Positions 8,545 through 44,853 of a stretch of 64,000 bases of DNA are shown piece after piece (the first letter of the stretch is position 1; every line of letters begins with the position of its first letter). The DNA is from Escherichia coli phage AZ21, in the sequence record LC788708.1. One strand, written 5' to 3'. The position numbers and the translations under genes were made by a program. A model generated the notes under the pieces. The model did no database searches, had not been told where the DNA came from, and was given only the letters and a program-made list of their open reading frames with translations.

Positions 8545-9246
8545 ATGAAAGTAAAACCATTTGGTATGCTAGATATTGAATCTCTAGGAACTCCAGGAGA
8601 TTGTGGTACTACCCATATCGCAATGCCTTCATTCGCTTTTGTGGCTATGCATGGAATTGATAAAGACCCTGATCTAGTATTTGTTACTTTAGATGTACAA
8701 GATCAACTTAATTCTGGTGCCAAAGTTACAGCATCTACTCTAGCATTCTGGATGGATCAGGCTAAACATAGCCCGTCTGCTATCCACATTATGGAAGCTA
8801 TGAATGAGCGTAATCCAAAACTGGTTGCCTTCCAAAATGGTAAACATCATTGCACTAATAAACTTGGCTCTAACCATGCTGCCTTCTCTATGGCTCAAAA
8901 TATTATGGAGTTGGCTCTAGGCGAAAATGCTTTGTATTATGGCAATGGCCCAGAGTTTGATATGACTATCTACTCTGCAAACACTTTCCATGCTGGAACC
9001 AATGAAGAAATAGTTCCGTGGAAATTCTGGAACTTGGGTAATGTTAGATCTCTTCGTAATCTCTGGATGCAAACTGGCTATAGTTATAAAGCTCTAGAAA
9101 CCGAAGGTATTAGCTGGGCAATAGCTAAAATGGAGAAGATGGACACCATTCGTTATGGGATCTATCCGGTTAAGCACGACCCAGCATTCGATGCCCTAGT
9201 TGAGAGCTATTGTGTTGCAGCTATGATCGAAAAAATGAAAATTTGA
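8545..9246 (+). CDS. putative DEDDh-type 3'-5' exonuclease
   Basis: Exo I-like LDIESLG near N-terminus and Exo III-like YPVKHDPAFDA near C-terminus. Confidence 0.5.
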   Translation: MKVKPFGMLDIESLGTPGDCGTTHIAMPSFAFVAMHGIDKDPDLVFVTLDVQDQLNSGAKVTASTLAFWMDQAKHSPSAIHIMEAMNERNPKLVAFQNGKHHCTNKLGSNHAAFSMAQNIMELALGENALYYGNGPEFDMTIYSANTFHAGTNEEIVPWKFWNLGNVRSLRNLWMQTGYSYKALETEGISWAIAKMEKMDTIRYGIYPVKHDPAFDALVESYCVAAMIEKMKI

Positions 9247-9247
9247 T

Positions 9248-9276
9248 TTGCTTCCGGCTCCAAAATTCTGTATAAT
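9248..9276 (+). promoter_or_regulatory. sigma70 promoter (T5 early type)
   Basis: TTGCTT-17-TATAAT then CATAAATTTGAG leader. Confidence 0.65.
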
Positions 9277-9316
9277 ATATTCATAAATTTGAGAAAACAA
9301 TAAAAGGAAAACAAAT

Positions 9317-9499
9317 ATGCCAGTATCTAAAAATGTTCGTAAAAATGGTAAGAAAGCTACTCGTAATCTGGGTATCCGTCGTATGGCTGAACGTCAATCA
9401 GGTATCCAGAAAATCTTTGATCTGCTAAATCGTGCTAATCCTAAAATTGATAACAGTAACGATACTGTTCTGCGCACCCTGCTGGCAATTGGTCTGTAA
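9317..9499 (+). CDS. hypothetical basic small protein
   Basis: 60 aa. Confidence 0.35.
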   Translation: MPVSKNVRKNGKKATRNLGIRRMAERQSGIQKIFDLLNRANPKIDNSNDTVLRTLLAIGL

Positions 9500-9552
9500 T
9501 AGACCAAATTTAAACAAATTCAAATCTCAAACTTCATATAAGGAAGCAAATA

Positions 9553-10191
9553 ATGACTACTCGTATCTCTAAAACTCGCGCTCTGGCAACTATCAAATCT
9601 CTGGAAGCTAAAATCCGTAAAGCTACTGAACAACAGCTTCTGATCGCTGTTGGTGAAGGTAAGGATAAAAACCAGGTTGTAGTTGGCGCTGCAATCGAAG
9701 TAGATGCCCTGTCTACTCGTATTAAAACTGATTTCCAATCTCTGCTGGATATGATGTCTCAGCGTGATCGTATTAAATCTGCTCTGATTAAGAGCAATGC
9801 AGAAACAATCGTTGAGATTGGTTCTCGTAAGATGACTGTTGCGGAAGCAATTGAAGCTAAGCGTTCTATGGAGCTTAAAGCTCAGCTGCTGGCTAACATG
9901 CGTAAGCAGTTCCATGCCGCTACGATTAAGTTTAATACGCAGAAAGCACAGTTTGATGCTAAATATGAGCGTTTGCAGGATAGCATGGCTACCCGCGATA
10001 AGAAAACTTCCGAAGATGAAGTTAAAATGCAGCTCAATCTGCTGGAACTCAAGAATACTCCATTCTTGATTGATCCGCTGGAACTGGAGAAGCTGATTAA
10101 GCAGCATGACGAGGAATACCAGGACTTTGCAACAAATGTTGACTTTGTTCTATCCGAGTCTAACGCCTCTACCTTCATTGAAGTAGAGTAA
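9553..10191 (+). CDS. hypothetical coiled-coil protein
   Basis: RBS AAGGAAG then ATG; 212 aa. Confidence 0.45.
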   Translation: MTTRISKTRALATIKSLEAKIRKATEQQLLIAVGEGKDKNQVVVGAAIEVDALSTRIKTDFQSLLDMMSQRDRIKSALIKSNAETIVEIGSRKMTVAEAIEAKRSMELKAQLLANMRKQFHAATIKFNTQKAQFDAKYERLQDSMATRDKKTSEDEVKMQLNLLELKNTPFLIDPLELEKLIKQHDEEYQDFATNVDFVLSESNASTFIEVE

Positions 10192-10574
10192 TAATTTAAA
10201 AGCTAGTAAATCGGTAGACGAAAGCCCAAGCATCTTACCTCGCAGCAGCGGTTGAAATACGAGGTTAAATAAGACCGCTGACCATACTATAAAGTATAAT
10301 CTATTGGAGATTATGTTTATTACACCAGCCTCTTAAGCTGACACGTAAGAACAAAGCGTCGTTGATATTACCGACACAACTTCAAAGATCAACATTTAAG
10401 TATGAAAGCTGAAAAGTTTAAAGAACTCAAACTTCTAAACTTCTAAAGCTAAAAGATGCAAAGTATTCGTTGATGATTCAAACCCTAGATCAAAGGTACA
10501 TGGCTCATAAGATATGGCCTGTGGCGCCTCTAGGCTGTTTATCGGTTTACTAGTTTCACAATTTAAAAATGTAT

Positions 10575-32884: not shown

Positions 32885-33774
32885 TGGGATTTTATAGTAA
32901 TAGAAAACCAAAAGGTGTAACTGGTAAATTCGCAGTTGAAGAAAGACCTTTTCCACCGGTCGATGTAGAGAAACTACGTGAACTTCTAGAAATGCTAGAA
33001 GGTTGCCATGAACGTTGTTATTCTGAACTCTCTTTAAATGAGAAACGTGTTGTTGAGATGTTCTGTATTCGTTCAGCTAGAACAGCTAAAGGTACTTCTC
33101 CAAAAGATGAAGTAAAAGAGTACAGAGTTCTAGTGATGCATGCTTGGGCACAACGTTTTGCAGTTCATTCGCTTCAGGAATGGTTTAATCTTCCAGCCTA
33201 TAAAGATTTTCATGTTTACGAAGATGAGGTTATGAATTATAATGAGTTGTATGGTTTGTCCTTCAAAAAGACAGGCTCACCGATGCATGATGCACTCAAT
33301 TCATTCCCTGATCATTACCTTCCAGTTCGTGAATATAGAGATCGTGAAGGAAATAAACCCTGCTTCACTATTTGGAATAAGTCTAAGACGATATCTGATC
33401 TAGATAATTATTGGTTTCGCACAAAAGAAGGATTCCTAGGAACAGAACCTTTACCTAAGGATCTCAAACCTATCCTTCCGCCTGCGAAACCTAAACATGA
33501 AGTAACGATTGCTATTAATAGAATAATTCTAGGAGCAGATGATCTTACTAAACAAATCGCCGCAGTTATCGCAGTTCTGTTTGACGGTACAAATTCTTCT
33601 GCACGTTATGAGAAGCTAACGGATAACAAATTGCAGATACCTAACGAGTTGTATGAGAGTTCGTGCAAGATCTATGATAACTTTAGTAAAGTAGATTACC
33701 CCGTGAGATCCATTAAAGAACTCATGGAGTATGCGGAGATGGGGATGAAAGGAAATCTCATGTTCGATGAATAA
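32884..33774 (+). CDS. hypothetical protein
   Basis: 296 aa; last early-type gene before repeat region. Confidence 0.45.
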   Translation: MGFYSNRKPKGVTGKFAVEERPFPPVDVEKLRELLEMLEGCHERCYSELSLNEKRVVEMFCIRSARTAKGTSPKDEVKEYRVLVMHAWAQRFAVHSLQEWFNLPAYKDFHVYEDEVMNYNELYGLSFKKTGSPMHDALNSFPDHYLPVREYRDREGNKPCFTIWNKSKTISDLDNYWFRTKEGFLGTEPLPKDLKPILPPAKPKHEVTIAINRIILGADDLTKQIAAVIAVLFDGTNSSARYEKLTDNKLQIPNELYESSCKIYDNFSKVDYPVRSIKELMEYAEMGMKGNLMFDE

Positions 33775-33781
33775 ACTCTAC

Positions 33782-33810
33782 TTGACGTTATGATTTCTGC
33801 ATGTTATAAT
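33782..33810 (+). promoter_or_regulatory. sigma70 promoter pointing into the gene-free repeat region
   Basis: TTGACG-17-TATAAT; no convincing ORF downstream. Confidence 0.5.
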
Positions 33811-34138
33811 AACTCTATGAAATAACATAGAATAAAGAGATCCACCCGGATACGGATGGTGGATGGGAAACTTCTATTTCCCCCGTAGCTTGTCGGAGGG
33901 CTAGGGAAATCTTAAGAAGTTTTGTACCATCTCACGCAATTCGTATCCCAGGGGTGGAGCATCTCTTCCAATCTTTGGGGATCTTATACTTAAATTAAAG
34001 GTAAAACTTTTGGTCACATAATTTACATTCAAGATGATACACTGGTTGCCGCCATTCTTCCTAGGATGGCACAACACTTTCTTCTAGACTCCTAAGTTTC
34101 TAGGAATACTAACTCTAGAGTTTACACTAAACTTTGAA

Positions 34139-34876
34139 TCGGATTCGCACATGCTCTAGGGCAGTTTTTCATCTACTATAAATATCCTAGGCCGGTTTTC
34201 CTATACAGGGCGGTTATGGGGAGGGCGGTTATTTCTAGACAATAAAATTTACTCTTGTCAGTCCAGAAATTACTGTCGGATTTGCACATTGTGTTTCTAG
34301 AAATTTATGGTCGGATTTGCACAATTGCCTAAGTTTTTAGGAACATATAATCTCCTGAAAATGGCAGCATTATTTCGGGCCGAAGGCCCATGATTGCCTG
34401 AGTTTTTTTAGAGACACAGAAATTTTCACTTGTCAAGCTATTTTGCCCCATTTTGCTAATAAAATTTTACTTTATCTCCCCTAATCTCAAATTAACCCAA
34501 ATCTTCTCAACTCTTCTCCAAAATCCCCGCAAATCAGGTGCTCCGCACCAAACATGCGCCCCTCCCGTAGTTCCCCCAAGTTTCTCTCGATCTCTCAACT
34601 TCTCCCCAAACTCATACAATCACACACCCTCCAATCGAAGTCACAAAAATCTTGTCGGATTCGCACAAATAAACCCATGTCGGATTTGCACATATTCTAG
34701 TTAATTCCACAGGATTGATGCGCAGCATCGGATTGCTGGAGTTTTTGGGAGAATTCATTGTCGGATTCGCACACTATAAAAATTTTTCGGGTCGGATTTG
34801 CACACTACCAAAAATTGTCGGATTCGCACATACACGCCCACGCGTAATCCATGGGGGCAAATGTCGGATTTGCACA
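34139..34876 (+). repeat. array of nine direct copies of GTCGGATT(T/C)GCACA
   Basis: Copies at about 34139, 34275, 34310, 34654, 34679, 34760, 34791, 34817, 34863, irregular spacing. Confidence 0.85.
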
Positions 34877-34881
34877 AAAGC

Positions 34882-34899
34882 GCAGGGCAATTGCCCTGC
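34882..34899. repeat. perfect 18 bp palindrome GCAGGGCAATTGCCCTGC
   Basis: Read directly. Confidence 0.85.
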
Positions 34900-34904
34900 T
34901 TGCC

Positions 34905-35098
34905 TGAATGCGAATGATAATGAGAATCATTTGCATTTAAAAAGCGGAATGAGAATGATAATAATTCGCATTTAAGAATGGAAGTGAGAATTATTCAGGA
35001 AGTGAAACGATTCTCATTTAAAAAGTGAAACGATTCTCATTTAGAAAGTGAAACGCGAATGATAATGATTCGTATTTAAGAATGGAAGTGAGAAACAC
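34905..35098. repeat. GAATGATAATGA / AGTGAAACGATTCTCATTTA / CGCATTTAAGAATGGAAGTGAGAA repeat block
   Basis: AGTGAAACGATTCTCATTTA twice in tandem (35001, 35025); C(G/A)(C/T)ATTTAAGAATGGAAGTGAGAA twice (34968, 35071). Confidence 0.8.
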
Positions 35099-35109
35099 TA
35101 TTATTTAAG

Positions 35110-35118
35110 TTATCCACA
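35110..35118 (+). promoter_or_regulatory. DnaA-box consensus TTATCCACA
   Basis: Exact 9-mer; TTATCAACA variants at about 35122, 35171, 35183. Confidence 0.6.
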
Positions 35119-35199
35119 GACTTATCAACAGCACGATTTGACTTGACAGAATCCTAGCCATTTTGAGGCGTTATCAACAGACTTATCAACAGCTTATCC

Positions 35200-35219
35200 T
35201 ACTGTATAAATATACAGTA
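35200..35219. promoter_or_regulatory. LexA-box-like palindrome TACTGTATAAATATACAGTA
   Basis: CTGT-N8-ACAG with AT-rich core, close to the E. coli SOS-box consensus. Confidence 0.55.
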
Positions 35220-35413
35220 TTCCTATGCAGTGAATAATTCTAATATACAGCTAAAACGCTCTCAAACGCATTCTAACGCGTTTAATTTTGGTGGGGATAC
35301 TAAAACAAGGGCAAAATTGGAGGAGGCTTGAAAATTAGTTAGCTCGCTAATGATCACACACGGCGACACGTAACACCCTAACCATTAGCAGGCTAACCAT
35401 CGCGGGCGTGGTC

Positions 35414-35434
35414 AAATGAGAATGATTCTCATTT
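35414..35434. repeat. 21 bp palindrome AAATGAGAATGATTCTCATTT
   Basis: Same GAGAATGAT core as the upstream repeat block. Confidence 0.8.
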
Positions 35435-35585
35435 GTGGATTGGGGGCGCTTCCTGATAGTTGCGCCCCGTGATTATTATAGTAGGGGGCAACCGTTACGC
35501 TTTGCCCACTCCCGCCACTCATCTTGGTGCCTAGACTTGCGACGGCGTACTAAAAACCGCTTGTACCAGTGATTAAACCATCGTT

Positions 35586-35789
35586 TCATAAATCCTCCTC
35601 CGGTAGTCGATGCGTGATCTTTTCCTCCTCCCCATAGGAATCCACCAAATACTGATAATAACCATCGTGATCATAAATCACTTTATCATATTCCCCACGC
35701 TCGACCGCTTGCCGATTTTCCAACGTATCAGGCACAAAGAAAGTATCAACGGTAACAGTAGTTTTAGTTACAACAATTTTATCACTCAT
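35586..35789 (-). CDS. hypothetical pre-early protein
   Basis: 67 aa acidic; last gene of minus-strand block. Confidence 0.4.
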   Translation of the reverse strand: MSDKIVVTKTTVTVDTFFVPDTLENRQAVERGEYDKVIYDHDGYYQYLVDSYGEEEKITHRLPEEDL

Positions 35790-35915
35790 AATGCCATCGC
35801 CCCTAGAATGAGAATGATTATCAATATCATTGTGAAGCCATTACCAAATCGTAAACGCTGGGAATGTTTCCCAGCGGTATTATTAGACTTATGGCTTTGT
35901 GTTTTTCGCCACCAG

Positions 35916-36116
35916 CTATTCACGGTAGACGCTCCATCCGTCTAGCTTCCATTCTTCCCCCTTGCGAATATTGAAAAACCAATCATTAAAATTGTAACCA
36001 TCTTCTGACATGATCACGCCGTTTTCTTTCATGTACAAAAATTCATCACTAGTAAAATATTGATTACTAACTTTAAAACCTTGTTTCATTTTTTCTAGTG
36101 CTTCATCTTTAGTCAT
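35916..36116 (-). CDS. hypothetical pre-early protein
   Basis: 66 aa; start overlaps upstream stop. Confidence 0.4.
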   Translation of the reverse strand: MTKDEALEKMKQGFKVSNQYFTSDEFLYMKENGVIMSEDGYNFNDWFFNIRKGEEWKLDGWSVYRE

Positions 36117-36457
36117 TGCGCCACCTTTCGAAACGCTGTTTCAATACTATCCGCAGTGGATTGAATATATGCGCCTTTGAGTATCAGCCGCTCGGTGCAT
36201 ATCTTGCGAAAAATATTAATAAAATCGTCCTCATTTTCTGCGATTAATGCCTCACCCATAACCTGAACGTCGCAAGATGCAAAGGTCAAAAATTGAAACG
36301 CTAGTTCACGGGCAACGACCGCATTGATTTTATAATGCGCCTTGCCTTCATAGATATTAATAACGCCCTTATAAGCTGGCGAAAGCTGATTTAAGTAGTT
36401 TGCTAATAATGCCGGACGGCAATTAGCAACAAAACGATTGCCCTCATAAATAACCAT
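36113..36457 (-). CDS. hypothetical pre-early protein
   Basis: 114 aa. Confidence 0.4.
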   Translation of the reverse strand: MVIYEGNRFVANCRPALLANYLNQLSPAYKGVINIYEGKAHYKINAVVARELAFQFLTFASCDVQVMGEALIAENEDDFINIFRKICTERLILKGAYIQSTADSIETAFRKVAQ

Positions 36458-36580
36458 TTGATAGTCTCCCGATTAGATAGCCAGATAATAACATAAAGAT
36501 CCCCAATAAAAGAGGATCATTCTTAAATAAGGTGGCGGTAAAACCGCCAACCATTGCAAGGAGAATAACAATAATGCTTT

Positions 36581-36793
36581 TCATAGTACCCCACGAAACG
36601 CAGCGTAAAAGGTGGCAAAGTGTTTAACTGTTTCAGCAATCACGTTGCCGCGCTTATCAAATTTCTTTTCTGTAACACGAAAGGCATTTTTATTACGTGC
36701 TACATATTCGATTTTACAATCTTCCCGCTCGAACGTGTTAACATCCACCAGCTTAAAGCCTTTCGAACGTGCAAGAGAAACGTTGCGGATCAT
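36581..36793 (-). CDS. hypothetical pre-early basic protein
   Basis: 70 aa. Confidence 0.35.
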   Translation of the reverse strand: MIRNVSLARSKGFKLVDVNTFEREDCKIEYVARNKNAFRVTEKKFDKRGNVIAETVKHFATFYAAFRGVL

Positions 36794-36795
36794 TT

Positions 36796-36978
36796 TTATT
36801 CCCCTTTACTAGTCATGCAGCCCAGCAGATAAGAAAATACAGCGATGCCAGCACCAATAGTAACCATTGGTTTTATATTTACTAAACCGCAATAGGAATC
36901 CTGAATACCATAAGCGGTGGCGAAAAGAGTCAAAATAGCGCCCAAGATACCCGCTAAAATAGCTCGAAAAATAACCAT
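36796..36978 (-). CDS. hypothetical small membrane protein
   Basis: 60 aa, two hydrophobic helices. Confidence 0.35.
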   Translation of the reverse strand: MVIFRAILAGILGAILTLFATAYGIQDSYCGLVNIKPMVTIGAGIAVFSYLLGCMTSKGE

Positions 36979-37027
36979 TTGTAATACTCCTCTAGTTAGT
37001 GGGGCGAAAGTAACGCCCCGTTATTAA

Positions 37028-37258
37028 TTACATTAAAATAATTTTTGCCGCTTGTTTTTTGGTACAGTGTTCCGCTTTCAGGGTGTCCAGCAAAAAGCCC
37101 GCCGTTTGCTGATCGATTTTATCGGCATTATATAGTTCTTGGATGGTGTTATAAGTTTTAGCAATGCCGTATTCTTGTACCATTTCTTGAATAATCCAGC
37201 GATTTGATACCCAGCCTTTACCAGTGAAAAGAGCGTCAGAAGAAGAGTAAGCAACCAT
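37028..37258 (-). CDS. hypothetical pre-early protein
   Basis: RBS GGAGG then ATG on minus strand; track ORF trimmed. Confidence 0.4.
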   Translation of the reverse strand: MVAYSSSDALFTGKGWVSNRWIIQEMVQEYGIAKTYNTIQELYNADKIDQQTAGFLLDTLKAEHCTKKQAAKIILM

Positions 37259-37364
37259 TTTAAGCCTCCAAATTTTTGGGAAAATTTTCAACCGTCCTCA
37301 AACGGTGTAAAGGCATTATAACAAAAAAGGCCGCCATAAAAGGCGACCTTTACAAAACTTTACA

Positions 37365-37859
37365 TTAAACTACTTGTAAGGATTCAATATTGAAACATCG
37401 TTTCAGTTCGTCATGCAAAACGGCATATTCATCCCATCGGGTACTATCAGGAATATAAACAAGCTGTTTTAATCGGTTTGCATATATTACCGCTTTGTTA
37501 TCAATTATCTCGACGCCACCATATTTAATAATTAATTTCATGACGGAATTAATAGGATCGCCGCCGTTTACATATGCGCCGGATTTACTTAATTGATAAT
37601 GATAAAGGCTTGCATATACGTTTTCATTTTCATACCATTCGCCAGTCTCTTCGTCTTCATAGCCATCGCTACCAAAACGAGAAGCATTATCAACAGCCAT
37701 TTCATGAGCAAAAGCGTCCAGATCCGTACCAGCAGGAACAAAATATTCCTCGGTATTCCCTTCCCCGCAATAGCCAGTATGACAATCGACTAAAATGATC
37801 ATATCATGTTTAGCCTTGCTCACTTCCCCTAGCGAGAAGCCGTATTTTTCTTCTAACAT
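37365..37859 (-). CDS. hypothetical pre-early acidic protein
   Basis: RBS AGGAGA then ATG on minus strand; 164 aa. Confidence 0.45.
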   Translation of the reverse strand: MLEEKYGFSLGEVSKAKHDMIILVDCHTGYCGEGNTEEYFVPAGTDLDAFAHEMAVDNASRFGSDGYEDEETGEWYENENVYASLYHYQLSKSGAYVNGGDPINSVMKLIIKYGGVEIIDNKAVIYANRLKQLVYIPDSTRWDEYAVLHDELKRCFNIESLQVV

Positions 37860-37923
37860 AATTAGTCTCCTATTAATTAACAAGGAAATAGTAAAGCGGG
37901 GAAATAATCCCCGCTAGATATTA

Positions 37924-38157
37924 TTACTCGTTTTCGGTGTTAGTGGTAAAAGTAGAGATATCGATACCTTTTACCATTTCATCGATCATCTCAGCGATGT
38001 TAAAACTTTGCACCATTTCTAACATTGCCGCTTCCATAGCCGCCCCTGCTACCGCTTTCGCTTTCTGATTAGTCGGGGCGTACTGGTCAACCGCTACACT
38101 CAGCAGGTTAGCGATCACTACACGACCAATCGGCGTATCAATATAGCCTTTGATCAT
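37924..38157 (-). CDS. hypothetical pre-early protein
   Basis: 77 aa; start overlaps upstream gene end by 20 nt. Confidence 0.4.
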   Translation of the reverse strand: MIKGYIDTPIGRVVIANLLSVAVDQYAPTNQKAKAVAGAAMEAAMLEMVQSFNIAEMIDEMVKGIDISTFTTNTENE

Positions 38158-38929
38158 AAACGGTGCTTTTTTTAGCCGCTACTTTCGTGATTTGAGTTAG
38201 TGCAATTTTACCAGCTTCCAGTTTTGCAGCGTTTACAACAGCGGATTTATTAGCGGCAACGATATTAGCGATCTTGGTCATGGTATTTTTTCCTTTGTTT
38301 TCAGTAGTTTGAGTATTAACGCTTTGAGTGTTAGAGCTTACAACCTGTTTTTCAATATTGTCAACTGGTTTTAGTGTAAATCCAGCATTTGCAACGTTTG
38401 ATTCATTCCCATACTCTAAATAATCACTAGGGATCAACATGTTGCCACTAGCGCGTTCAAAACATAACACGCCAGTTGTAGAAATTACATTACTATCAGC
38501 ACTTTTGTAATTAGCTGATAGTTCACGCCAAATGCTAGTTAATAACGATCCGACACTATCAGTCCTGATATTACTTACTTTTGTTGCTGTTACTTGCTCT
38601 TTTTCTTGCACGTTATATAATCGCGCAATGTAACCACTATTAGATTCACTATAACCAACAATGATAAAATCAATATCTCTTCCACGTTGATTGCGGAAAA
38701 TGTGATAATCACGGTTGAAAATTACTAGCGCCCTTTTCTGGTCTAGTAATTGTGTGAAATCTTCAACTGAATAATGAGTACCCTCATCGTCTAAAATTCT
38801 ATCATGAATCTTTTCGATAATAGTAGCGGTATGCTGTACGCTTGCCGCGCTACTACCCTCTAACAGATTGCGCAAACTGCCTTTAATAATAGTGGCGTTT
38901 GCTGGTACTGCAATTCTTACAGTAGACAT
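38138..38929 (-). CDS. hypothetical pre-early protein (first gene of minus-strand block)
   Basis: 263 aa; RBS GGGAGA then ATG on minus strand. Confidence 0.5.
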   Translation of the reverse strand: MSTVRIAVPANATIIKGSLRNLLEGSSAASVQHTATIIEKIHDRILDDEGTHYSVEDFTQLLDQKRALVIFNRDYHIFRNQRGRDIDFIIVGYSESNSGYIARLYNVQEKEQVTATKVSNIRTDSVGSLLTSIWRELSANYKSADSNVISTTGVLCFERASGNMLIPSDYLEYGNESNVANAGFTLKPVDNIEKQVVSSNTQSVNTQTTENKGKNTMTKIANIVAANKSAVVNAAKLEAGKIALTQITKVAAKKSTVYDQRLY

Positions 38930-39195: not shown

Positions 39196-39215
39196 CCCTG
39201 TATATTTATACAGTG
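39196..39215. promoter_or_regulatory. LexA-box-like palindrome CTGTATATTTATACAG
   Basis: Exact reverse complement of the 35202-35217 core; lies upstream of the minus-strand block. Confidence 0.55.
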
Positions 39216-39224
39216 GAATAACCT

Positions 39225-39233
39225 GTGGATAAG
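39225..39233 (-). promoter_or_regulatory. DnaA-box consensus (TGTGGATAA on + strand)
   Basis: Exact reverse complement of TTATCCACA; second copy at about 39298-39306. Confidence 0.6.
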
Positions 39234-39554
39234 TCTGTGCAAAAGTCCTTATATCACCGCCTATCGTGTCAAGTTATTTTGTGCTGTGGAAAACATTGTG
39301 GATAACTTAAATGATAGTGCTTCTCACTTAGGCTAATGATTTCTTATAGTTATTATTTCTCATTAATTTATAAGTATATTATATATTATCAAATAGTTAG
39401 TTGGCTAATGAGATTTTCCGTGATTAATAGTCTGCTAATAATTCAGGTCGTTACAATCCACCAGCATGATTATCATTCTAGCAATTATTAGTCTGCTATC
39501 TTTCCGATACATACTAACAAATAAAAGTCAATTAATTTATTTCATAAAATAAGT

Positions 39555-40818: not shown

Positions 40819-41226
40819 ATGACTAACGCAAAAACCGCAAAATTCGCATGGAATGAAGAAAACACTCAGAAAGCTGTTACCATGTACCAGCAGTTAATCA
40901 ACGAAAACGGTTTAGATTTTGCAAATAGCGACGGCCTGAAAGAGATTGCAAAAGCAGTAGGCGCGGCCTCCCCCGTATCCGTTCGGTCAAAATTGACCAG
41001 TGCAAAAGCCTATCAAAAAAGCGATAAGCCGCGTAAAGTTGGCGGCGGTAGCTCTGTGCGTAAAGCTCACTATGTGCGAGTAATTGCAAAACACGCTATC
41101 GATTCCGGTATTATCAAAGACGCCGATGATCTGGCAAGCCTTGAAAGTGCTAAACTGGAAACGCTGGACGCGGTGGCGCAACTGTTAGGCGTTGCCGATG
41201 AAGTAAAACAAGCCGTAGGTGAATAA
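40819..41226 (+). CDS. hypothetical pre-early protein, possible A2 homolog
   Basis: 135 aa; RBS TAGGAG; sits on the inner side of the A1-like gene with one small ORF between; name assigned by position and size only. Confidence 0.4.
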   Translation: MTNAKTAKFAWNEENTQKAVTMYQQLINENGLDFANSDGLKEIAKAVGAASPVSVRSKLTSAKAYQKSDKPRKVGGGSSVRKAHYVRVIAKHAIDSGIIKDADDLASLESAKLETLDAVAQLLGVADEVKQAVGE

Positions 41227-41601: not shown

Positions 41602-43272
41602 ATGATTATTTCCGCAGAAAAACAAACCGTTATCCTGAAAATGGCCGCTGATTTCAATTTCTACGGTAAACGCCTGCGCGCCACTAAACTGGAGGTCTGC
41701 GACGATATTTCAAAAGCGGTCTACGATACAACGAAACACTCCACCGCTATCTGCGACTGGCTGGAAGCAAATAAACCAGCGAAACCAAAAGCGGCAAAAG
41801 TAGCAAAAGCCATTAAAAACGGTGAGCGCCCCGAAGCGGCTGGGATTGTTTCTAGTACCGTGGAGCAGTGGGAAGTAAAACAAGGTAAACGCTTTATTAT
41901 TACATCGATTCAGAATAATACTTTCCCGCATAAAAACTTTTTAGCCTCACTGGAGCAATTTGCTAAATATATCGGGGCTGATTTGCTCGTTTCTAAGTAT
42001 ATTTATAATAAAAACGGTTTTCAAAATGGGGAAGGTGCTGACGGAATCAAATATGATTCCGCGTTTGATAAATATATTTGCAGCAAAAACGTGTTTTTGA
42101 ATAACCGCCGCTTTGCTTTCATGGCTGAAATTAATGTTTTGCCTACCGCAGATTATCCGCTTTCTGGATTCGCAGAAACTGCAACGGCTTTAAATATTGA
42201 AGGTCTGGCAATTGGTCACGCTAAAATTACCGCTGAAAGCGTACCAGCTTTAAAAGGTGAAGTAGTGCGCCGTATGTACTCAACCGGAACGGCAACGCTC
42301 AAAAACTACATTCAGCAGAAAGCAGGACAAAAGGCCGAGGCGCTGCATAACTTCGGTGCGCTTATTGTTGAGTTCGACGAGGACGGGGAATTTTTTGTAC
42401 GCCAGCTTGAAACGATGGACGAAAGCGGGGTATTTTATGATCTGAATGTGTGTGCTACTCCTGCCGGATGCTATGAAACATCGGGGCATGTTTTAGGCTT
42501 GCAGTATGGCGATATTCACGCCGAAAAATTAGATGAGGAGTGCGCCGCCGCGTCATGGGGGCATGGTGATACTTATGGGCTAGTAGATATTCTTAAACCA
42601 AAATATCAGTTTGTGCATGACGTGCATGATTTTACATCGCGCAATCATCATAACCGCGCATCGGGTGTATTCCTAGCAAAACAGTACGCCGCCGGACGTG
42701 ATAAGGTTATTGATGATCTTATCGATACGGGGCGCGTGCTGGAATCAATGGAGCGTGATTTTTCTCAAACAATCATTGTTGAATCGAATCACGATTTGGC
42801 GTTATCCCGTTGGCTTGATGATCGTAATGCTAACATCAAAGACGATCCAGCAAACGCAGAACTGTATCACCGCCTGAATGCTGCAATTTACGAGGCAATC
42901 GGTGAACATGACGAAACGTTCAACGTGCTAGATTATGCGCTGCGCAAGGTTGCAGGTTGTGAGTTTAACGCCATTTTCCTGACCACTGACCAATCTTTCA
43001 AGATTGCAGGCATTGAATGCGGCGTACACGGTCACAACGGCATTAATGGCAGTCGTGGCAATCCCAAACAATTTAAGAAATTGGGCAAGTTAAACACTGG
43101 TCATACTCATACGGCAAGCATTTACGGCGGGGTATATACCGCTGGCGTAGCTGGTAGTCTGGATATGGGTTACAACGTTGGCGCGTCAAGCTGGACGCAA
43201 ACTCATTTAATTACCTATGCAAACGGTCAGCGCACTTTGATTGACTTTAAGAACGGTAAATTTTTTGCGTAA
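41602..43272 (+). CDS. A1: A1-like pre-early protein, calcineurin-like metallophosphoesterase/nuclease
   Basis: 556 aa, the length I recall for T5 A1; metallophosphoesterase motifs YGDIHAE, HDVHDF, ESNHD, GVHGHNG, GHTHT; RBS AATGGAG. Confidence 0.75.
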   Translation: MIISAEKQTVILKMAADFNFYGKRLRATKLEVCDDISKAVYDTTKHSTAICDWLEANKPAKPKAAKVAKAIKNGERPEAAGIVSSTVEQWEVKQGKRFIITSIQNNTFPHKNFLASLEQFAKYIGADLLVSKYIYNKNGFQNGEGADGIKYDSAFDKYICSKNVFLNNRRFAFMAEINVLPTADYPLSGFAETATALNIEGLAIGHAKITAESVPALKGEVVRRMYSTGTATLKNYIQQKAGQKAEALHNFGALIVEFDEDGEFFVRQLETMDESGVFYDLNVCATPAGCYETSGHVLGLQYGDIHAEKLDEECAAASWGHGDTYGLVDILKPKYQFVHDVHDFTSRNHHNRASGVFLAKQYAAGRDKVIDDLIDTGRVLESMERDFSQTIIVESNHDLALSRWLDDRNANIKDDPANAELYHRLNAAIYEAIGEHDETFNVLDYALRKVAGCEFNAIFLTTDQSFKIAGIECGVHGHNGINGSRGNPKQFKKLGKLNTGHTHTASIYGGVYTAGVAGSLDMGYNVGASSWTQTHLITYANGQRTLIDFKNGKFFA

Positions 43273-43645: not shown

Positions 43646-44038
43646 ATGAAAAAGCAAAATATTCCATTCGATCGCGCTCAGTCTTCTATTGTTCTGGTTT
43701 ATTCTAATGGTGAGCGTTACCACGTCGAGGCGGGGCACGTTATTGATGAATTATTAGATTTCAATGACGCTTTACAGGTTACTACCTTTGCCTACACGCA
43801 AGGCCGCGCAAGTAGTTACATTAAGGCCGCAGGCGTTTATGTTGACACGGTGAAACAAGAAACGATTATCATCGACGCAGTAAAATCCGGTCTAGCCTTT
43901 GCAGTTGTCGCGCCTTGCCCCTCTTGTCTTGATGATCAGCTAACGAGTGCGAAAGTATACACCTGCGCGGGCATTCGTTCCCATGTATCAGGAGAGGATA
44001 TTAGTTTTATCGCTGATGCGTTGGCTTATGGTCTTTAA
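43646..44038 (+). CDS. hypothetical pre-early protein
   Basis: RBS TTGGAG; 130 aa. Confidence 0.45.
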   Translation: MKKQNIPFDRAQSSIVLVYSNGERYHVEAGHVIDELLDFNDALQVTTFAYTQGRASSYIKAAGVYVDTVKQETIIIDAVKSGLAFAVVAPCPSCLDDQLTSAKVYTCAGIRSHVSGEDISFIADALAYGL

Positions 44039-44118
44039 TAGTTGATTTATTATTGCCCGCTGATAGATAGCGGGCAATGCTGGATAAACTACATCCCTTT
44101 AATGGAGAACGTAACAAA

Positions 44119-44853
44119 ATGAATCAAGTTAAAACGAATATTTCCCGTAACTTCCCGCATATTTCCCGCGTCATGATCTGGGATCTTGATGGCACTATCG
44201 TTAATTCATTCCATCGTGTAGCGCCTTGCTTTGATAGTGAGGGTAATCTAGATTTAAATAAGTATAAGAATGAGGCTTGCAAACATGATTTAATAATGCA
44301 GGATACTTTATTGCCTTTGGTGGAATATATGCGCCAATGCATGAATGACGCAAATACTTTAAACATTATTTGTACCGCTCGATTAATGAGCAAATCGGAT
44401 TATTATTATTTGCGCAAACAAGGCTTGCGAGGGCGTGGGGATAGCAATATCCGCGTGTTTTCCCGCGACACGCTGCATAAATATTTTGAAGCTGATAAGG
44501 TTAGCGAGATATACCACAGTAAAGACGCAGTTTATAAATCGTATTACTTTGAATTATTTAAACAGCTATATCCGAACGCTGATTTCACAATGATTGATGA
44601 TCATAAAGGTGTATTATCAGCGGCGGCGTCATACGGATTTAAAACGCTAGACGCGCAAGCCGTTAACGATATTCTATCAATCGGCGTGGCATTGATAGGC
44701 GGAACCTTTATTGATGAATCTCTCGATGATGATAATGATTATCAGTTCCTAGCCGATCGATTGAAATTATGTTGGGAAAGTATGACCGAAGAAGAACGCG
44801 CAGAATATAGTTGCAGCCCGCAACAATATATTGAGAAATTAAAAGTTGCGTAA
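44119..44853 (+). CDS. dmp: HAD-family 5'-deoxyribonucleotidase (Dmp-like)
   Basis: HAD motif I VMIWDLDGT near N-terminus; 244 aa from the RBS-supported ATG; same CCCTTTAATGGAG leader as the A1-like gene. Confidence 0.7.
   Translation: MNQVKTNISRNFPHISRVMIWDLDGTIVNSFHRVAPCFDSEGNLDLNKYKNEACKHDLIMQDTLLPLVEYMRQCMNDANTLNIICTARLMSKSDYYYLRKQGLRGRGDSNIRVFSRDTLHKYFEADKVSEIYHSKDAVYKSYYFELFKQLYPNADFTMIDDHKGVLSAAASYGFKTLDAQAVNDILSIGVALIGGTFIDESLDDDNDYQFLADRLKLCWESMTEEERAEYSCSPQQYIEKLKVA

Follow-up and report, generated by a model that had tools for sequence, protein, structure and literature searches.

RESULTS

A repeat-rich noncoding gap where the terminal repeat ends

The window, i.e., the whole 64,000-nucleotide stretch analyzed here from Escherichia coli phage AZ21 (LC788708.1), belongs to a Tequintavirus and includes a 1.8-kb noncoding gap (positions 33775 to 35585) flanked by convergent genes. 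The gap is found where the terminal repeat has its inner end, with the rightward pre-early operon on one side and the early genes on the other. It is the "Repeat Region 3" of T5, a candidate injection-stop signal: the element is the same in both phages and occupies the same place, with 89% identity across 432 nt of the region. A total of 458 phage records match the region, nearly all from T5-like phages of Salmonella, Escherichia, or Klebsiella. These matches and the gene context bear out the guess, made in an earlier sequence-only reading of the window, that the DNA represents a T5-like pre-early region. On the plus strand, the window also encodes A2 (40819 to 41226; identified with PHROGs), a phage DNA-binding protein required in second-step transfer, and the DNA transfer protein A1 (41602 to 43272), which is encoded by 1,134 phage genomes and served as the anchor for gathering related loci. 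A candidate location for A2 at 43646 to 44038 was ruled out by the PHROGs assignment.

The terminal repeat ends at about position 34411, as judged from contig ends in seven assemblies, and this corresponds to the right physical end of the genome. Nine plus-strand DRD repeats, TCGGATT(C/T)GCACA, straddle it (34139 to 34877) and are followed by a conserved GC-rich hairpin (GCGCAGGGCAATTGCCCTGC, 34880 to 34899), terminator-like on the minus strand, that divides them from the array described below, itself some 500 bp away from where the terminal repeat ends. Many inverted repeats surround this array, and the GC content of the region is 36% compared to 39% for the whole window.

A repeat search, which sorted the copies into families of three to five members, gave families in agreement with the published T5 list. 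The T5 repeats have already been named DRE1/DRE2, DRB, palC/palD, and IRD'-spacer-IRC' by Davison, who termed their functions impossible to guess (bioRxiv 10.1101/866236). Both T5 and the window have paired DnaA boxes, an inverted second copy of these, and the nine DRD repeats, and the Fur and LexA readings given below are additions to the descriptions of Repeat Region 3. Heusterspreute (1987) and Wang (2005) are the sources cited by Davison for the repeats. Neither Fur nor LexA is mentioned in the Davison preprint (bioRxiv 10.1101/866236) or in a 2026 T5 preprint, and searches of the accessible literature linking T5-like phages to Fur or LexA sites returned nothing relevant.

Repeat families and predicted Fur-type units

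The core GAGAATGAT occurs three times in the 64 kb, always in this region. Around it, two DRB 20-mers (AGTGAAACGATTCTCATTTA) lie in tandem on the plus strand at 35001 to 35020 and 35024 to 35043 (23-bp period), with a partial third copy (AGTGAAACG) beginning at 35047. Two plus-strand copies of the DRE tail, CG(C/T)ATTTAAGAATGGAAGTGAGAA, are found at 34967 to 34990 (where it reads CGCATTTAAGAATGGAAGTGAGAA) and at 35071 to 35094, the latter strongly conserved among relatives. A 21-bp palindrome, AAATGAGAATGATTCTCATTT, spans 35414 to 35434 as a perfect 10-1-10 inverted repeat, and a related motif, ATGAGAATGATTATCA, is located at 35808 to 35823, 19 to 34 nt upstream of the ATG of the minus-strand open reading frame (ORF) 35586-35789. 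All four elements had been noticed in the sequence-only reading and are exact; the sites start at 34906, not 34905, and related ones extend as far as 35832, beyond the bounds given to the feature there.

Five predicted Fur-type units can be delineated within these repeats. F1 (GAAT GCGAAT GATAAT GAGAAT c ATTTGC ATTT, 34906 to 34938) contains overlapping sites scoring 19.6 bits (34912, plus strand), 18.2 bits (34920, minus strand), and 14.2 bits (34906, plus strand) with the matrix described below. F2 (GAGAAT GATAAT a ATTCGC, 34947 to 34973), which forms the head of one DRE copy, has the classical 19-bp forward-forward-x-reverse layout and scores 17.3 bits on the plus and 18.6 bits on the minus strand; F3 (GCGAAT GATAAT g ATTCGT, 35051 to 35077), the head of the second DRE copy, scores 17.7 and 15.5 bits, respectively. 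F4 is the perfect palindrome at 35414 to 35434, AAATGAGAAT g ATTCTCATTT (20.0 and 17.5 bits), and F5 (GAATGAGAATGATTATCAA, 35806 to 35832), with 23.2 bits the top site of the window, is a lineage-specific extra copy. The hexamers are arranged as forward-forward-x-reverse, forward-x-reverse, or four forward-x-reverse; the spacing between arms changes in steps of 6 bp (1, 7, 13), and palindrome centers lie 6 bp apart at 34912(+)/34920(−), 34947(+)/34955(−), and 35051(+)/35059(−). Taken together, the units offer room for at least five two-dimer sites within about 930 bp. The DRB 20-mers, in contrast to what a core shared by all the repeats would imply, carry only a Fur half-site, scoring below 6 bits as full sites, and the stretch they occupy (35001 to 35043) is the most variable between phages. 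They were also considered as CRP sites (AGTGA-N6-TCTCA), and this was dropped because many chance matches were estimated at two mismatches.

The shared core matches the E. coli Fur operator

Judged by its sequence, the GAGAATGAT core appears to be a canonical Fur operator, a correspondence that is apparently new. Fur operators have been modeled as a 19-bp GATAATGATAATCATTATC box, as arrays of hexamers, and as a 7-1-7 inverted repeat. A Fur matrix was derived by unsupervised Gibbs search of 12 Fur-regulated intergenic regions of E. coli K-12; the search recovered AAATGAGAATGATTATCAA, and genuine sites share a GAGAAT core, e.g., GAATGAGAATGATTATTAT in ryhB and AAACGAGAATGATTATTAT in fhuA. When left out of training, the 12 true E. 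coli sites scored 10.7 to 20.7 bits, compared to 15.5 to 23.2 bits for the phage sites, the top ones having 23.2, 20.0, 19.6, 18.6, 18.2, and 17.7 bits. Eight positions reach at least 16 bits between 33775 and 35900 versus 0.01 expected from 500 dinucleotide shuffles, and 11 reach at least 14 bits there versus about one per genuine host promoter; in control E. coli DNA (76.7 kb outside the training regions), there were no matches at or above 14 bits. The 19-bp consensus is matched six times with up to three mismatches (0.05 expected), and the 7-1-7 consensus six times with up to two (1.0 expected), five of these within 34915 to 35829. The forward-forward-x-reverse layout of the hexamers can be read directly in the sequence.

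These figures bear on whether AT-rich tandem duplications might simply resemble the AT-rich Fur box by chance. The region is indeed AT rich, and the dmp coding sequence, too, contains a perfect 7-1-7 Fur consensus; but the scarcity of high-scoring positions in the shuffles and in real E. coli DNA, as well as the persistence of the arrays in lineages whose surrounding sequence no longer aligns, render a fortuitous likeness hardly credible.

Similarity to the operator, taken alone, would be equally consistent with Fur or with a phage protein of the same specificity. The exact palindrome AATGAGAATnATTCTCATT is present in at least 120 viral contigs, of which 110 are unrelated to T5, which fits a site for a host factor better than one for a family-specific phage protein. 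A tblastn search of 50,697 phage records with E. coli Fur as the query detected no homolog in any T5-like phage. Pfam searches of all 17 pre-early ORFs found no DNA-binding domain, and PHROGs searches of 10 of these revealed neither a Fur nor a helix-turn-helix domain. The most plausible phage-encoded candidate for a dimeric protein recognizing the palindromes is A2, in which case the likeness to Fur would be incidental, or A2 would displace Fur and thereby restart transfer. A2 is an established DNA-binding protein, essential in second-step transfer, encoded in the window and conserved family-wide, and the sites are located where A1 and A2 must act. Its AlphaFold model (pLDDT 84) predicts two helical domains connected through a basic, Gly-rich linker, with an N-terminal bundle that weakly resembles helix-turn-helix folds, but a fold search against the PDB gave no significant match (best E = 0.55), and the model favors neither Fur nor A2 over the other. 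Moreover, the motif is the same between phages whose A1 proteins are only 34 to 65% identical and equals the host consensus, the palindrome recurs in the T5-unrelated contigs, Vibrio phage Chester has an A2-like gene and lacks the array, and no link between A2 and the motif was found. We therefore regard A2 as an unlikely binder. We know of no published recognition consensus for this protein.

Conservation among T5-like phages

The array is retained in all 27 distinct close relatives, where substitutions at orthologous sites hold the score at 17.0 bits, compared to 11.5 bits expected under random substitutions. It is also kept in the Pectobacterium phages My1 and DU_PP_V, Klebsiella phage Roth37, and Aeromonas phage AhSzw-1 (A1 identity, 34 to 74%), each with seven to nine positions of at least 14 bits versus 0.12 to 0.20 expected. 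Proteus phage 1 and two Vibrio phages, on the other hand, show little or no Fur enrichment (one or two positions), indicating that the array is not universal in the family. By lineage, the Fur array is retained in the enterobacterial and Aeromonas groups, and the module of DnaA-box pairs and LexA box described in the next section is kept across Demerecviridae, even in the Vibrio phages. Since the whole region is highly conserved, conservation does not single out the Fur boxes within it.

T5 itself (NC_005859), in which about 9400 to 9750 corresponds to window positions 34880 to 35450, has Fur-type sites at 9551 to 9577 and 9655 to 9722, flanking the calculated first-step boundary at 9618, and has no counterparts of the 35414 and 35806 sites.

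DnaA boxes, a LexA box, and an inverted second copy

Partly overlapping the array is a 132-bp module (35086 to 35217) that corresponds to IRD'-spacer-IRC' of T5. It comprises a weak Fur-like site (35086 to 35104; 13.5 bits), two DnaA-box pairs on the plus strand, and most of a LexA (SOS) box. The first pair, TTATCCACA gac TTATCAACA (35110 to 35130), has its boxes at 35110 and 35122 with a 3-bp gap; the second, the DnaA* pair TTATCAACA gac TTATCAACA (35171 to 35191), has them at 35171 and 35183 and is overlapped by an IHF consensus match at 35184. The LexA box, TACTGTATAAATATACAGTA (35200 to 35219), has a single mismatch to the 20-bp consensus, with zero such matches expected by chance. In the phages of Vibrio, Aeromonas, and Proteus, its arms (CTGT-N8-ACAG) are kept while the 4 bp at the center differ, a combination that mirrors the specificity of LexA.

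An inverted copy of the module, 83% complementary to 35086 to 35217, lies in the central repeat region at 39198 to 39329, in the divergent control region between two pre-early operons. It carries a LexA box (39198 to 39213), four consensus DnaA boxes (39224 to 39305), and a Fur-like site (39311 to 39329; 15.1 bits). A further Fur-like site lies near the leading end of the DNA, at a distance of about 240 bp.

The idea that the shared core is the operator of one dimeric regulator thus stands in part: it is an operator-type inverted repeat that matches the host Fur operator as well as genuine E. coli Fur sites do, but a single regulator leaves the neighboring DnaA and LexA boxes unexplained, and most of the sites are not at promoters, being found instead in a gap without genes between convergent transcription units.

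The same boxes invite an explanation in terms of the DNA itself or of the phage DNA machinery, the repeats forming a bent or cruciform block, signals for terminal-repeat cutting or duplication, or the iterons of an auxiliary origin. Structural explanations were preferred by earlier authors, and the array does lie close to the terminal-repeat end, amid many inverted repeats, with DnaA boxes and an IHF consensus match adjoining it as at plasmid origins. Structure, nevertheless, leaves unexplained the position-by-position identity with the host Fur consensus, the substitutions that preserve the Fur score, and the changes of spacing in hexamer steps. The T5 replication origins are reported near the genome center, no initiator gene is adjacent to the array, and no similar DNA was found in 72,556 plasmids, so that nothing points to an origin or operator region borrowed from a plasmid. 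We consider this group of explanations quite improbable.

Promoters and terminators in the repeat regions

Fur, LexA, and DnaA might instead bind as ordinary repressors of promoters in the repeat regions, with no role in the injection pause; the promoters would drive a noncoding transcript or the small flanking ORFs, and pre-early expression would be partly iron and DNA damage responsive. The 35806 site, 17 to 43 nt upstream of ORF 35586-35789 and the only one next to a gene start, would suit such a role, as would a promoter-like TTGAGA-17-TAGAAT on the minus strand (35265 to 35237) just upstream of the LexA box, the terminator-like hairpin after the array (34899 to 34882), and the placement of the second module in a divergent control region. 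Yet promoter-like matches are weak and not clearly enriched in the two repeat regions (11 versus 6.5 ± 2.4 and 8 versus 4.2 ± 2.1), and a terminator scan of both yielded no convincing enrichment. The main array is in a convergent gene-free gap, an Rfam scan of 33700 to 36000 at a permissive threshold gave just two chance-level matches, and the three experimentally mapped pre-early promoters of T5 are located elsewhere. As for the 35806 site, which the sequence-only reading took for the operator of the last minus-strand gene, a strong Fur-like site accompanies ORF 35586-35789 in only 3 of 22 distinct upstream contexts, that of the window included, and the pairing is therefore not generally kept. 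Ordinary repression as the sole function appears distinctly unlikely.

DISCUSSION

Our data reveal that the DRE, DRB, and pal families of Repeat Region 3 share a motif of definite identity, enrichment, architecture, position, and conservation. We infer from these features, tentatively but as the reading we favor, that the repeats carry a Fur-operator core and provide a platform for host Fur where first-step DNA gives way to second-step DNA. The core would consist of arrays of nnGAAT/GATAAT hexamers in forward-forward-x-reverse order and, matching the canonical Fur operator, would have the Fe2+-Fur dimer of the host as its most likely binder. Fur is already in the cell before infection, so that no phage gene expression would be needed, and the injection pause requires no phage protein synthesis. 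With the two DnaA-box pairs and the consensus LexA box, the array would form a roughly 550-bp platform from which DNA-binding proteins resident in the host are loaded onto the final stretch of first-step DNA, and the resulting nucleoprotein complex would mark and hold the boundary. This complex could bring the DNA to a halt at the entry channel or anchor it there or, alternatively, act as a roadblock to RNA polymerase, an idea suggested by the fact that the rightward pre-early operon is transcribed toward the channel, so that an unblocked RNA polymerase might pull second-step DNA inward. The hold would end once the phage proteins A1 and A2 act.

The roadblock logic is supplied by phage T7, whose genome entry is transcription driven and in which RNA polymerase moving toward the entry channel can pull DNA; T7 and the window phage have no sequence or protein relationship, and, to our knowledge, T5 entry is not known to be transcription driven. 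Davison proposed a DnaA-box model of the T5 injection stop that involves DnaA alone and relies on membrane association (bioRxiv 10.1101/866236). That model and the Fur platform have in common that a resident host protein captures the entering region without phage protein synthesis, whereas the platform described here adds predicted LexA and Fur sites. Since both LexA and Fur are cytoplasmic, a nucleoprotein complex or roadblock would be favored over membrane tethering.

Several considerations weigh against a Fur platform. Proteins on DNA that is already inside have no obvious means of opposing entry driven by capsid pressure. The T5 entry receptor is FhuA, which is produced when Fur is least active. 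The genome-wide host screens consulted mention fur only via its control of fhuA, so that any test is confounded by fhuA repression. Finally, fur mutants are, as far as known, T5 sensitive, which implies that any role of Fur would be modulatory or redundant rather than essential.

In a bolder version, iron-loaded Fur would polymerize along the DRE array while this is leaving the entry channel, possibly bridging to the inverted module 4 kb upstream and to the Fur-like site near the leading DNA end, and the DNA would be arrested or held until A1 and A2 dismantle the complex. Host Fur, with LexA and DnaA, would then be the host factor long looked for in the T5 injection stop, coupling two-step injection to the iron and SOS state of the cell; we regard this extension as speculative and improbable.

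Why T5 DNA stops after 8% of it has entered has been a question since the 1960s. The Fur/LexA/DnaA reading reduces it to a short list of named host proteins, for all three of which mutants, purified proteins, and assays exist, and the Fur-operator match makes a 50-year-old problem testable with host mutants. If Fur binds, this would be the first virulent phage, as far as known, with a conserved host Fur operator array away from a clear promoter, and a phage that enters via iron-regulated receptors would be linked to the iron regulator of its host. If it does not, the sites provide a precise consensus with which to look for a phage protein that binds them.

Host-repressor sites are otherwise known from temperate phages, e.g., the Fur-regulated stx1 promoter of Shiga-toxin phages and the use of LexA by CTXphi, 186, and GIL01. 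These cases resemble the T5-like array in equipping a mobile element with operators of a global host regulator, but they are single promoter operators with a clear regulated gene in temperate elements, whereas arrays without a clear regulated gene are present here in a virulent phage. The closer comparison is with the Fur operators of E. coli (fhuA, ryhB, fecI, fepA-fes, and others), with which the phage array has in common the consensus, the forward-forward-x-reverse hexamers, and overlapping sites offset by 6 bp, its matrix scores being in or above their range. The array differs from them in its situation in a gene-free gap of a virulent phage, in that most of its units have no recognizable promoter, and in being denser than any of the 12 host Fur promoters examined. 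It also favors GAGAAT and GCGAAT hexamers over GATAAT.

Location of the repeats

The window matches Escherichia coli phage AZ23 (LC788707.1, Tequintavirus) at 100% identity; subtracting 33912 from AZ23 record positions gives window positions. The repeats lie within a 1.8-kb gap without annotated genes (33775-35585), flanked by plus-strand genes that end at 33774 and by minus-strand genes that end at 35586. The latter form the pre-early minus-strand operon (35586-38929) to the right of the gap, separated from plus-strand genes by the 1.1-kb non-coding centre of the pre-early region; A2 (40819-41226), A1 (41602-43272), and dmp (44077-44853) are pre-early genes on the plus strand. In seven assemblies that retain both terminal repeats, the contig ends ~470 bp to the left of window position 34880, so that the terminal repeat has its inner end near 34411. 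The gap in AZ23 thus corresponds to Repeat Region 3 of T5 (9194-10409), which is presumed to be the injection stop signal (Davison, bioRxiv 10.1101/866236).

The element itself was previously described in T5. Comparing 25 T5-like phages, Davison (bioRxiv 10.1101/866236) lists here palC, palD, IRD', DRE1, DRB copies 1 and 2, IRC', DRE2, and nine DRD, notes paired DnaA boxes, and puts 9618, the calculated first-step boundary, within the DRE/DRD cluster; what the repeats do is called "impossible to guess," and the text mentions neither Fur nor LexA. A 2026 T5 preprint describes the stop site merely as rich in repeats and palindromes. Our literature search found no Fur or LexA sites tied to T5-like phages; earlier accounts (1987, 2005, 2015) could hold priority. 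The Fur and LexA readings of the T5 repeats appear to be new, and with them an old question becomes accessible to simple experiments.

The repeat core matches the Fur operator

All the strings quoted in the sequence-only reading were found where it had placed them: the 20-mer AGTGAAACGATTCTCATTTA, a DRB-type tandem repeat, starting at 35001 and 35024 and again, incompletely, at 35047; the 24-mer CG(C/T)ATTTAAGAATGGAAGTGAGAA, whose two copies begin at 34967 and 35071; the inverted repeat of 35414-35434, a perfect 10-1-10; and ATGAGAATGATTATCA at 35808-35823. A repeat search sorted these strings into families of 3 to 5 copies each. The core GAGAATGAT occurs three times in the 64-kb window, every time within the stretch that holds these repeats.

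Judged by sequence, this core is that of a Fur operator. The window has 6 matches (0.05 expected) to the classical 19-bp Fur consensus when 3 mismatches are allowed, and again 6 (1.0 expected) to the 7-1-7 consensus when 2 are allowed; all fall within 34915-35829 except one locus inside dmp. To avoid dependence on a remembered consensus, we built our own matrix from 12 E. coli K-12 intergenic regions with established Fur control (fepA-fes, fepD-entS, fepB-entC, fhuA, cirA, fecI, tonB, exbB, fhuE, fiu, fur, and ryhB), in which an unsupervised Gibbs sampler returned AAATGAGAATGATTATCAA. The host sites at ryhB (GAATGAGAATGATTATTAT) and fhuA (AAACGAGAATGATTATTAT) include the same GAGAATGAT core as the phage repeats. 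Genuine host sites left out of training scored 10.7 to 20.7 bits, and the best phage sites scored 23.2 (35806, plus strand), 20.0 (35414, plus), 19.6 (34912, plus), 18.6 (34955, minus), 18.2 (34920, minus), and 17.7 bits (35051, plus). Eight positions in 33775-35900 reached at least 16 bits, compared to 0.01 expected (500 dinucleotide shuffles, maximum 1). Eleven reached at least 14 bits, most of them within the 172-bp DRE array (34906-35077); at this threshold genuine Fur promoters have about one position each, and 76.7 kb of E. coli control DNA outside the training regions had zero.

The architecture of the repeats is, in sequence, Fur-like as well. The unit at 34947, GAGAAT GATAAT a ATTCGC, has the textbook forward-forward-x-reverse hexamer layout; the others read GCGAAT GATAAT g ATTCGT (35051), GCGAAT GATAAT GAGAAT c ATTTGC (34906), and GAGAAT g ATTCTC (35414). 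The spacing between outer arms is 1, 7, or 13 bp, i.e., hexamer steps, in both the window phage and Pectobacterium phage My1, and where plus- and minus-strand sites overlap, their centres lie 6 bp from each other. The tandem 20-mers contain a half-site only (<6 bits with the Fur matrix) and sit in the stretch that is most variable among the phages.

Fur-like sites were also seen elsewhere in the pre-early region. A 17.7-bit site, AAACGAGAAGCATTATCAA (37675-37693), lies within a 164-aa pre-early ORF (37365-37859), and several relatives have a site of this type at a similar distance upstream of A1. The dmp locus is a perfect 7-1-7 consensus, TGATAATGATTATCA (44725-44749), encoding DDDNDYQ; its T5 counterpart lies ~230 to 250 bp from the physical left end, which enters the cell first. 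Other lineages have Fur-like sites in or just past dmp at non-homologous positions (L069, Klebsiella phage Roth37, 16859; L070, 17293; L072, 9085; L071, 7543 and 7940). The dmp site may reflect coding coincidence, or it may give Fur a second contact on the leading DNA end.

Conservation of the array

Using A1 as a neutral anchor, we collected 57 loci. The array was retained in the same place, with 3 to 6 double sites of at least 15 bits, in 27 of 27 distinct close relatives. Orthologous sites that differ from those of the window phage average 17.0 bits, versus 11.5 for equally many random substitutions, a comparison that is descriptive only because the sequences share kinship. Beyond the genus, arrays persist though the flanks are ~72% identical or unalignable: My1 and DU_PP_V (A1 identity, 65 to 67%), Roth37 (74%), and Aeromonas phage AhSzw-1 (34%) have 7 to 9 positions of at least 14 bits each (0.12 to 0.20 expected). 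Proteus phage 1 and Vibrio phages Chester and D260 have just 1 or 2. In Roth37, an annotated string of 37- to 114-aa ORFs (L069, 5843-7722) spans the array and the LexA box; these are probably spurious calls in non-coding DNA.

DnaA and LexA boxes beside the array

Directly to the right of the array are two pairs of DnaA boxes (35110/35122 and 35171/35183), with 3 bp between the boxes of a pair, and a predicted LexA box, TACTGTATAAATATACAGTA (35200-35219), with 1 mismatch to the 20-bp consensus (0 expected by chance). A 132-bp module (35086-35217) has an inverted copy at 39198-39329 (83% complementary), which likewise contains a LexA box, together with four consensus DnaA boxes and a Fur-like site of 15.1 bits. 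With the second module inverted, the rightward pre-early operon (the minus-strand operon of the window) is flanked by Fur-DnaA-LexA and LexA-DnaA-Fur sites.

The 50-bp element comprising a DnaA pair and the LexA box is 94 to 96% identical in Pectobacterium phages, and a like arrangement is present in Vibrio phage Chester (GTTATCCACAACCTTATCCACC...TACTGTATATTTATACAGTG), Vibrio phage D260, AhSzw-1, and Proteus phage 1. In the Vibrio, Aeromonas, and Proteus phages the arms CTGTAT and ATACAG are constant and the central four bases variable, a pattern that is typical of LexA recognition and unlike that of a -10 promoter element. The specificities of DnaA, LexA, and Fur are constant across the Gammaproteobacteria; sites for host proteins should therefore hold while phage proteins diverge to 34% identity, and this is the pattern observed.

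Near-consensus LexA boxes occur twice per terminal repeat, each beside DnaA boxes (window 35200-35219 and 39198-39213), and were also located in other compared loci (L071, 288-303; L072, 3395 and 4925; L073, 6760 and 10691; L070, 8375). Demerecviridae at large keep these boxes, even Vibrio, Aeromonas, and Proteus phages with A1 34 to 42% identical, and the T5 literature examined does not mention them.

Candidate binder

A tblastn search of 50,697 phage records with E. coli Fur gave no homolog in any T5-like phage, and Pfam detected no DNA-binding domain in the 17 pre-early ORFs. At least 120 viral contigs contain the exact palindrome AATGAGAATnATTCTCATT; among those listed, 110 have no nucleotide similarity to the window phage, and their GC contents range from 27 to 65%. 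This occurrence fits a widely shared host operator better than the site of a family-specific phage protein. The rival candidate, A2, is established as a DNA-binding protein and is required for second-step transfer. Its predicted structure (pLDDT 84), two helical domains and a basic Gly-rich linker, has no significant PDB neighbour and so neither supports nor excludes it.

The sequence-only reading had suggested that the repeats are operators of one dimeric regulator. This is partly right: by sequence the motif is a dimer operator, with host Fur as the best candidate binder, though the sites lie mostly away from promoters and alongside those for DnaA and LexA. That the Fur, LexA, and DnaA sites are ordinary repressor sites is a real alternative, weakly supported: promoter-like matches are scarce and weak, the sole box that adjoins a gene start keeps this pairing in only 3 of 22 contexts, and the mapped T5 pre-early promoters lie elsewhere.

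Arrays of the same palindrome are also present in two viral contigs without megablast similarity to the window. In L144, three perfect palindromes stand 30 bp apart (1810-1888), just upstream of strong promoter-like sequences. In L190 (2117-2205, 7871-7923, and 9145-10663), 17 Fur-type positions occur along with 14 consensus DnaA boxes and one LexA box, so that this contig may belong to a distant relative of T5. Arrays resembling Fur operators may be commoner in phages than recognised.

Possible role in first-step transfer

The first-step pause is independent of phage protein synthesis, so whatever factor acts on the stop region must already be present in the cell or virion. In T5, Fur-type sites (9551-9577 and 9655-9722) and a LexA box (9411-9426) surround the calculated boundary at 9618. 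Given these two points, we favour a platform that would load resident host Fur, DnaA, and LexA onto the last-entering first-step DNA, extending Davison's proposal, which involves DnaA only. The platform might hold the DNA at the channel by tethering or stalling it. Alternatively, it might block RNA polymerase, the rightward operon being transcribed towards the channel; no canonical terminator was found between the operon end (35586) and the hairpin beyond the array (34899-34882). In T7, a polymerase travelling towards the entry channel pulls DNA in. Both modes are inferences. Several points weigh against the platform: bound cytoplasmic proteins have no obvious grip on capsid-pushed DNA, Proteus and Vibrio lineages have a weak array or none, neither the 35414 nor the 35806 site is present in T5, and FhuA-dependent phages infect cells at their lowest Fur activity. 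Published host screens, moreover, name fur solely via fhuA repression, indicating that Fur is not essential for phage growth.

Neighbouring features

Two pre-early minus-strand features lie to the right of the gap. A 66-aa ORF (35916-36116) has a weak, sub-threshold Pfam match to a Thoeris anti-defence Tad2-like domain (E = 0.005; 17.8 bits versus a cut-off of 25). DUF7566 (Pfam, 336 positions) is split over overlapping ORFs, with model positions 1-257 in a 263-aa ORF (38138-38929) and 260-336 in a 77-aa ORF (37924-38157), which suggests a frameshift (sequencing error, pseudogene, or programmed frameshifting).

To the left of the array, nine copies of TCGGATT(C/T)GCACA (DRD in T5; 34139-34877) straddle the terminal-repeat end near 34411, six inside the terminal repeat and three in unique DNA. 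The T5 tail measures ~250 nm, and the DRD stretch would thus lie within the tail and portal at the time when the Fur/LexA/DnaA platform is positioned at the cell. Adjacent is a highly conserved GC-rich hairpin, GCGCAGGGCAATTGCCCTGC (34880-34899), with a T-run after it on the minus strand. On the T5 genome its position would be at ~8.0%, and its sequence includes GCGC; a major single-strand nick of T5 maps to 7.9% and T5 nicks occur at GCGC-type sequences, so the hairpin may be that nick site.
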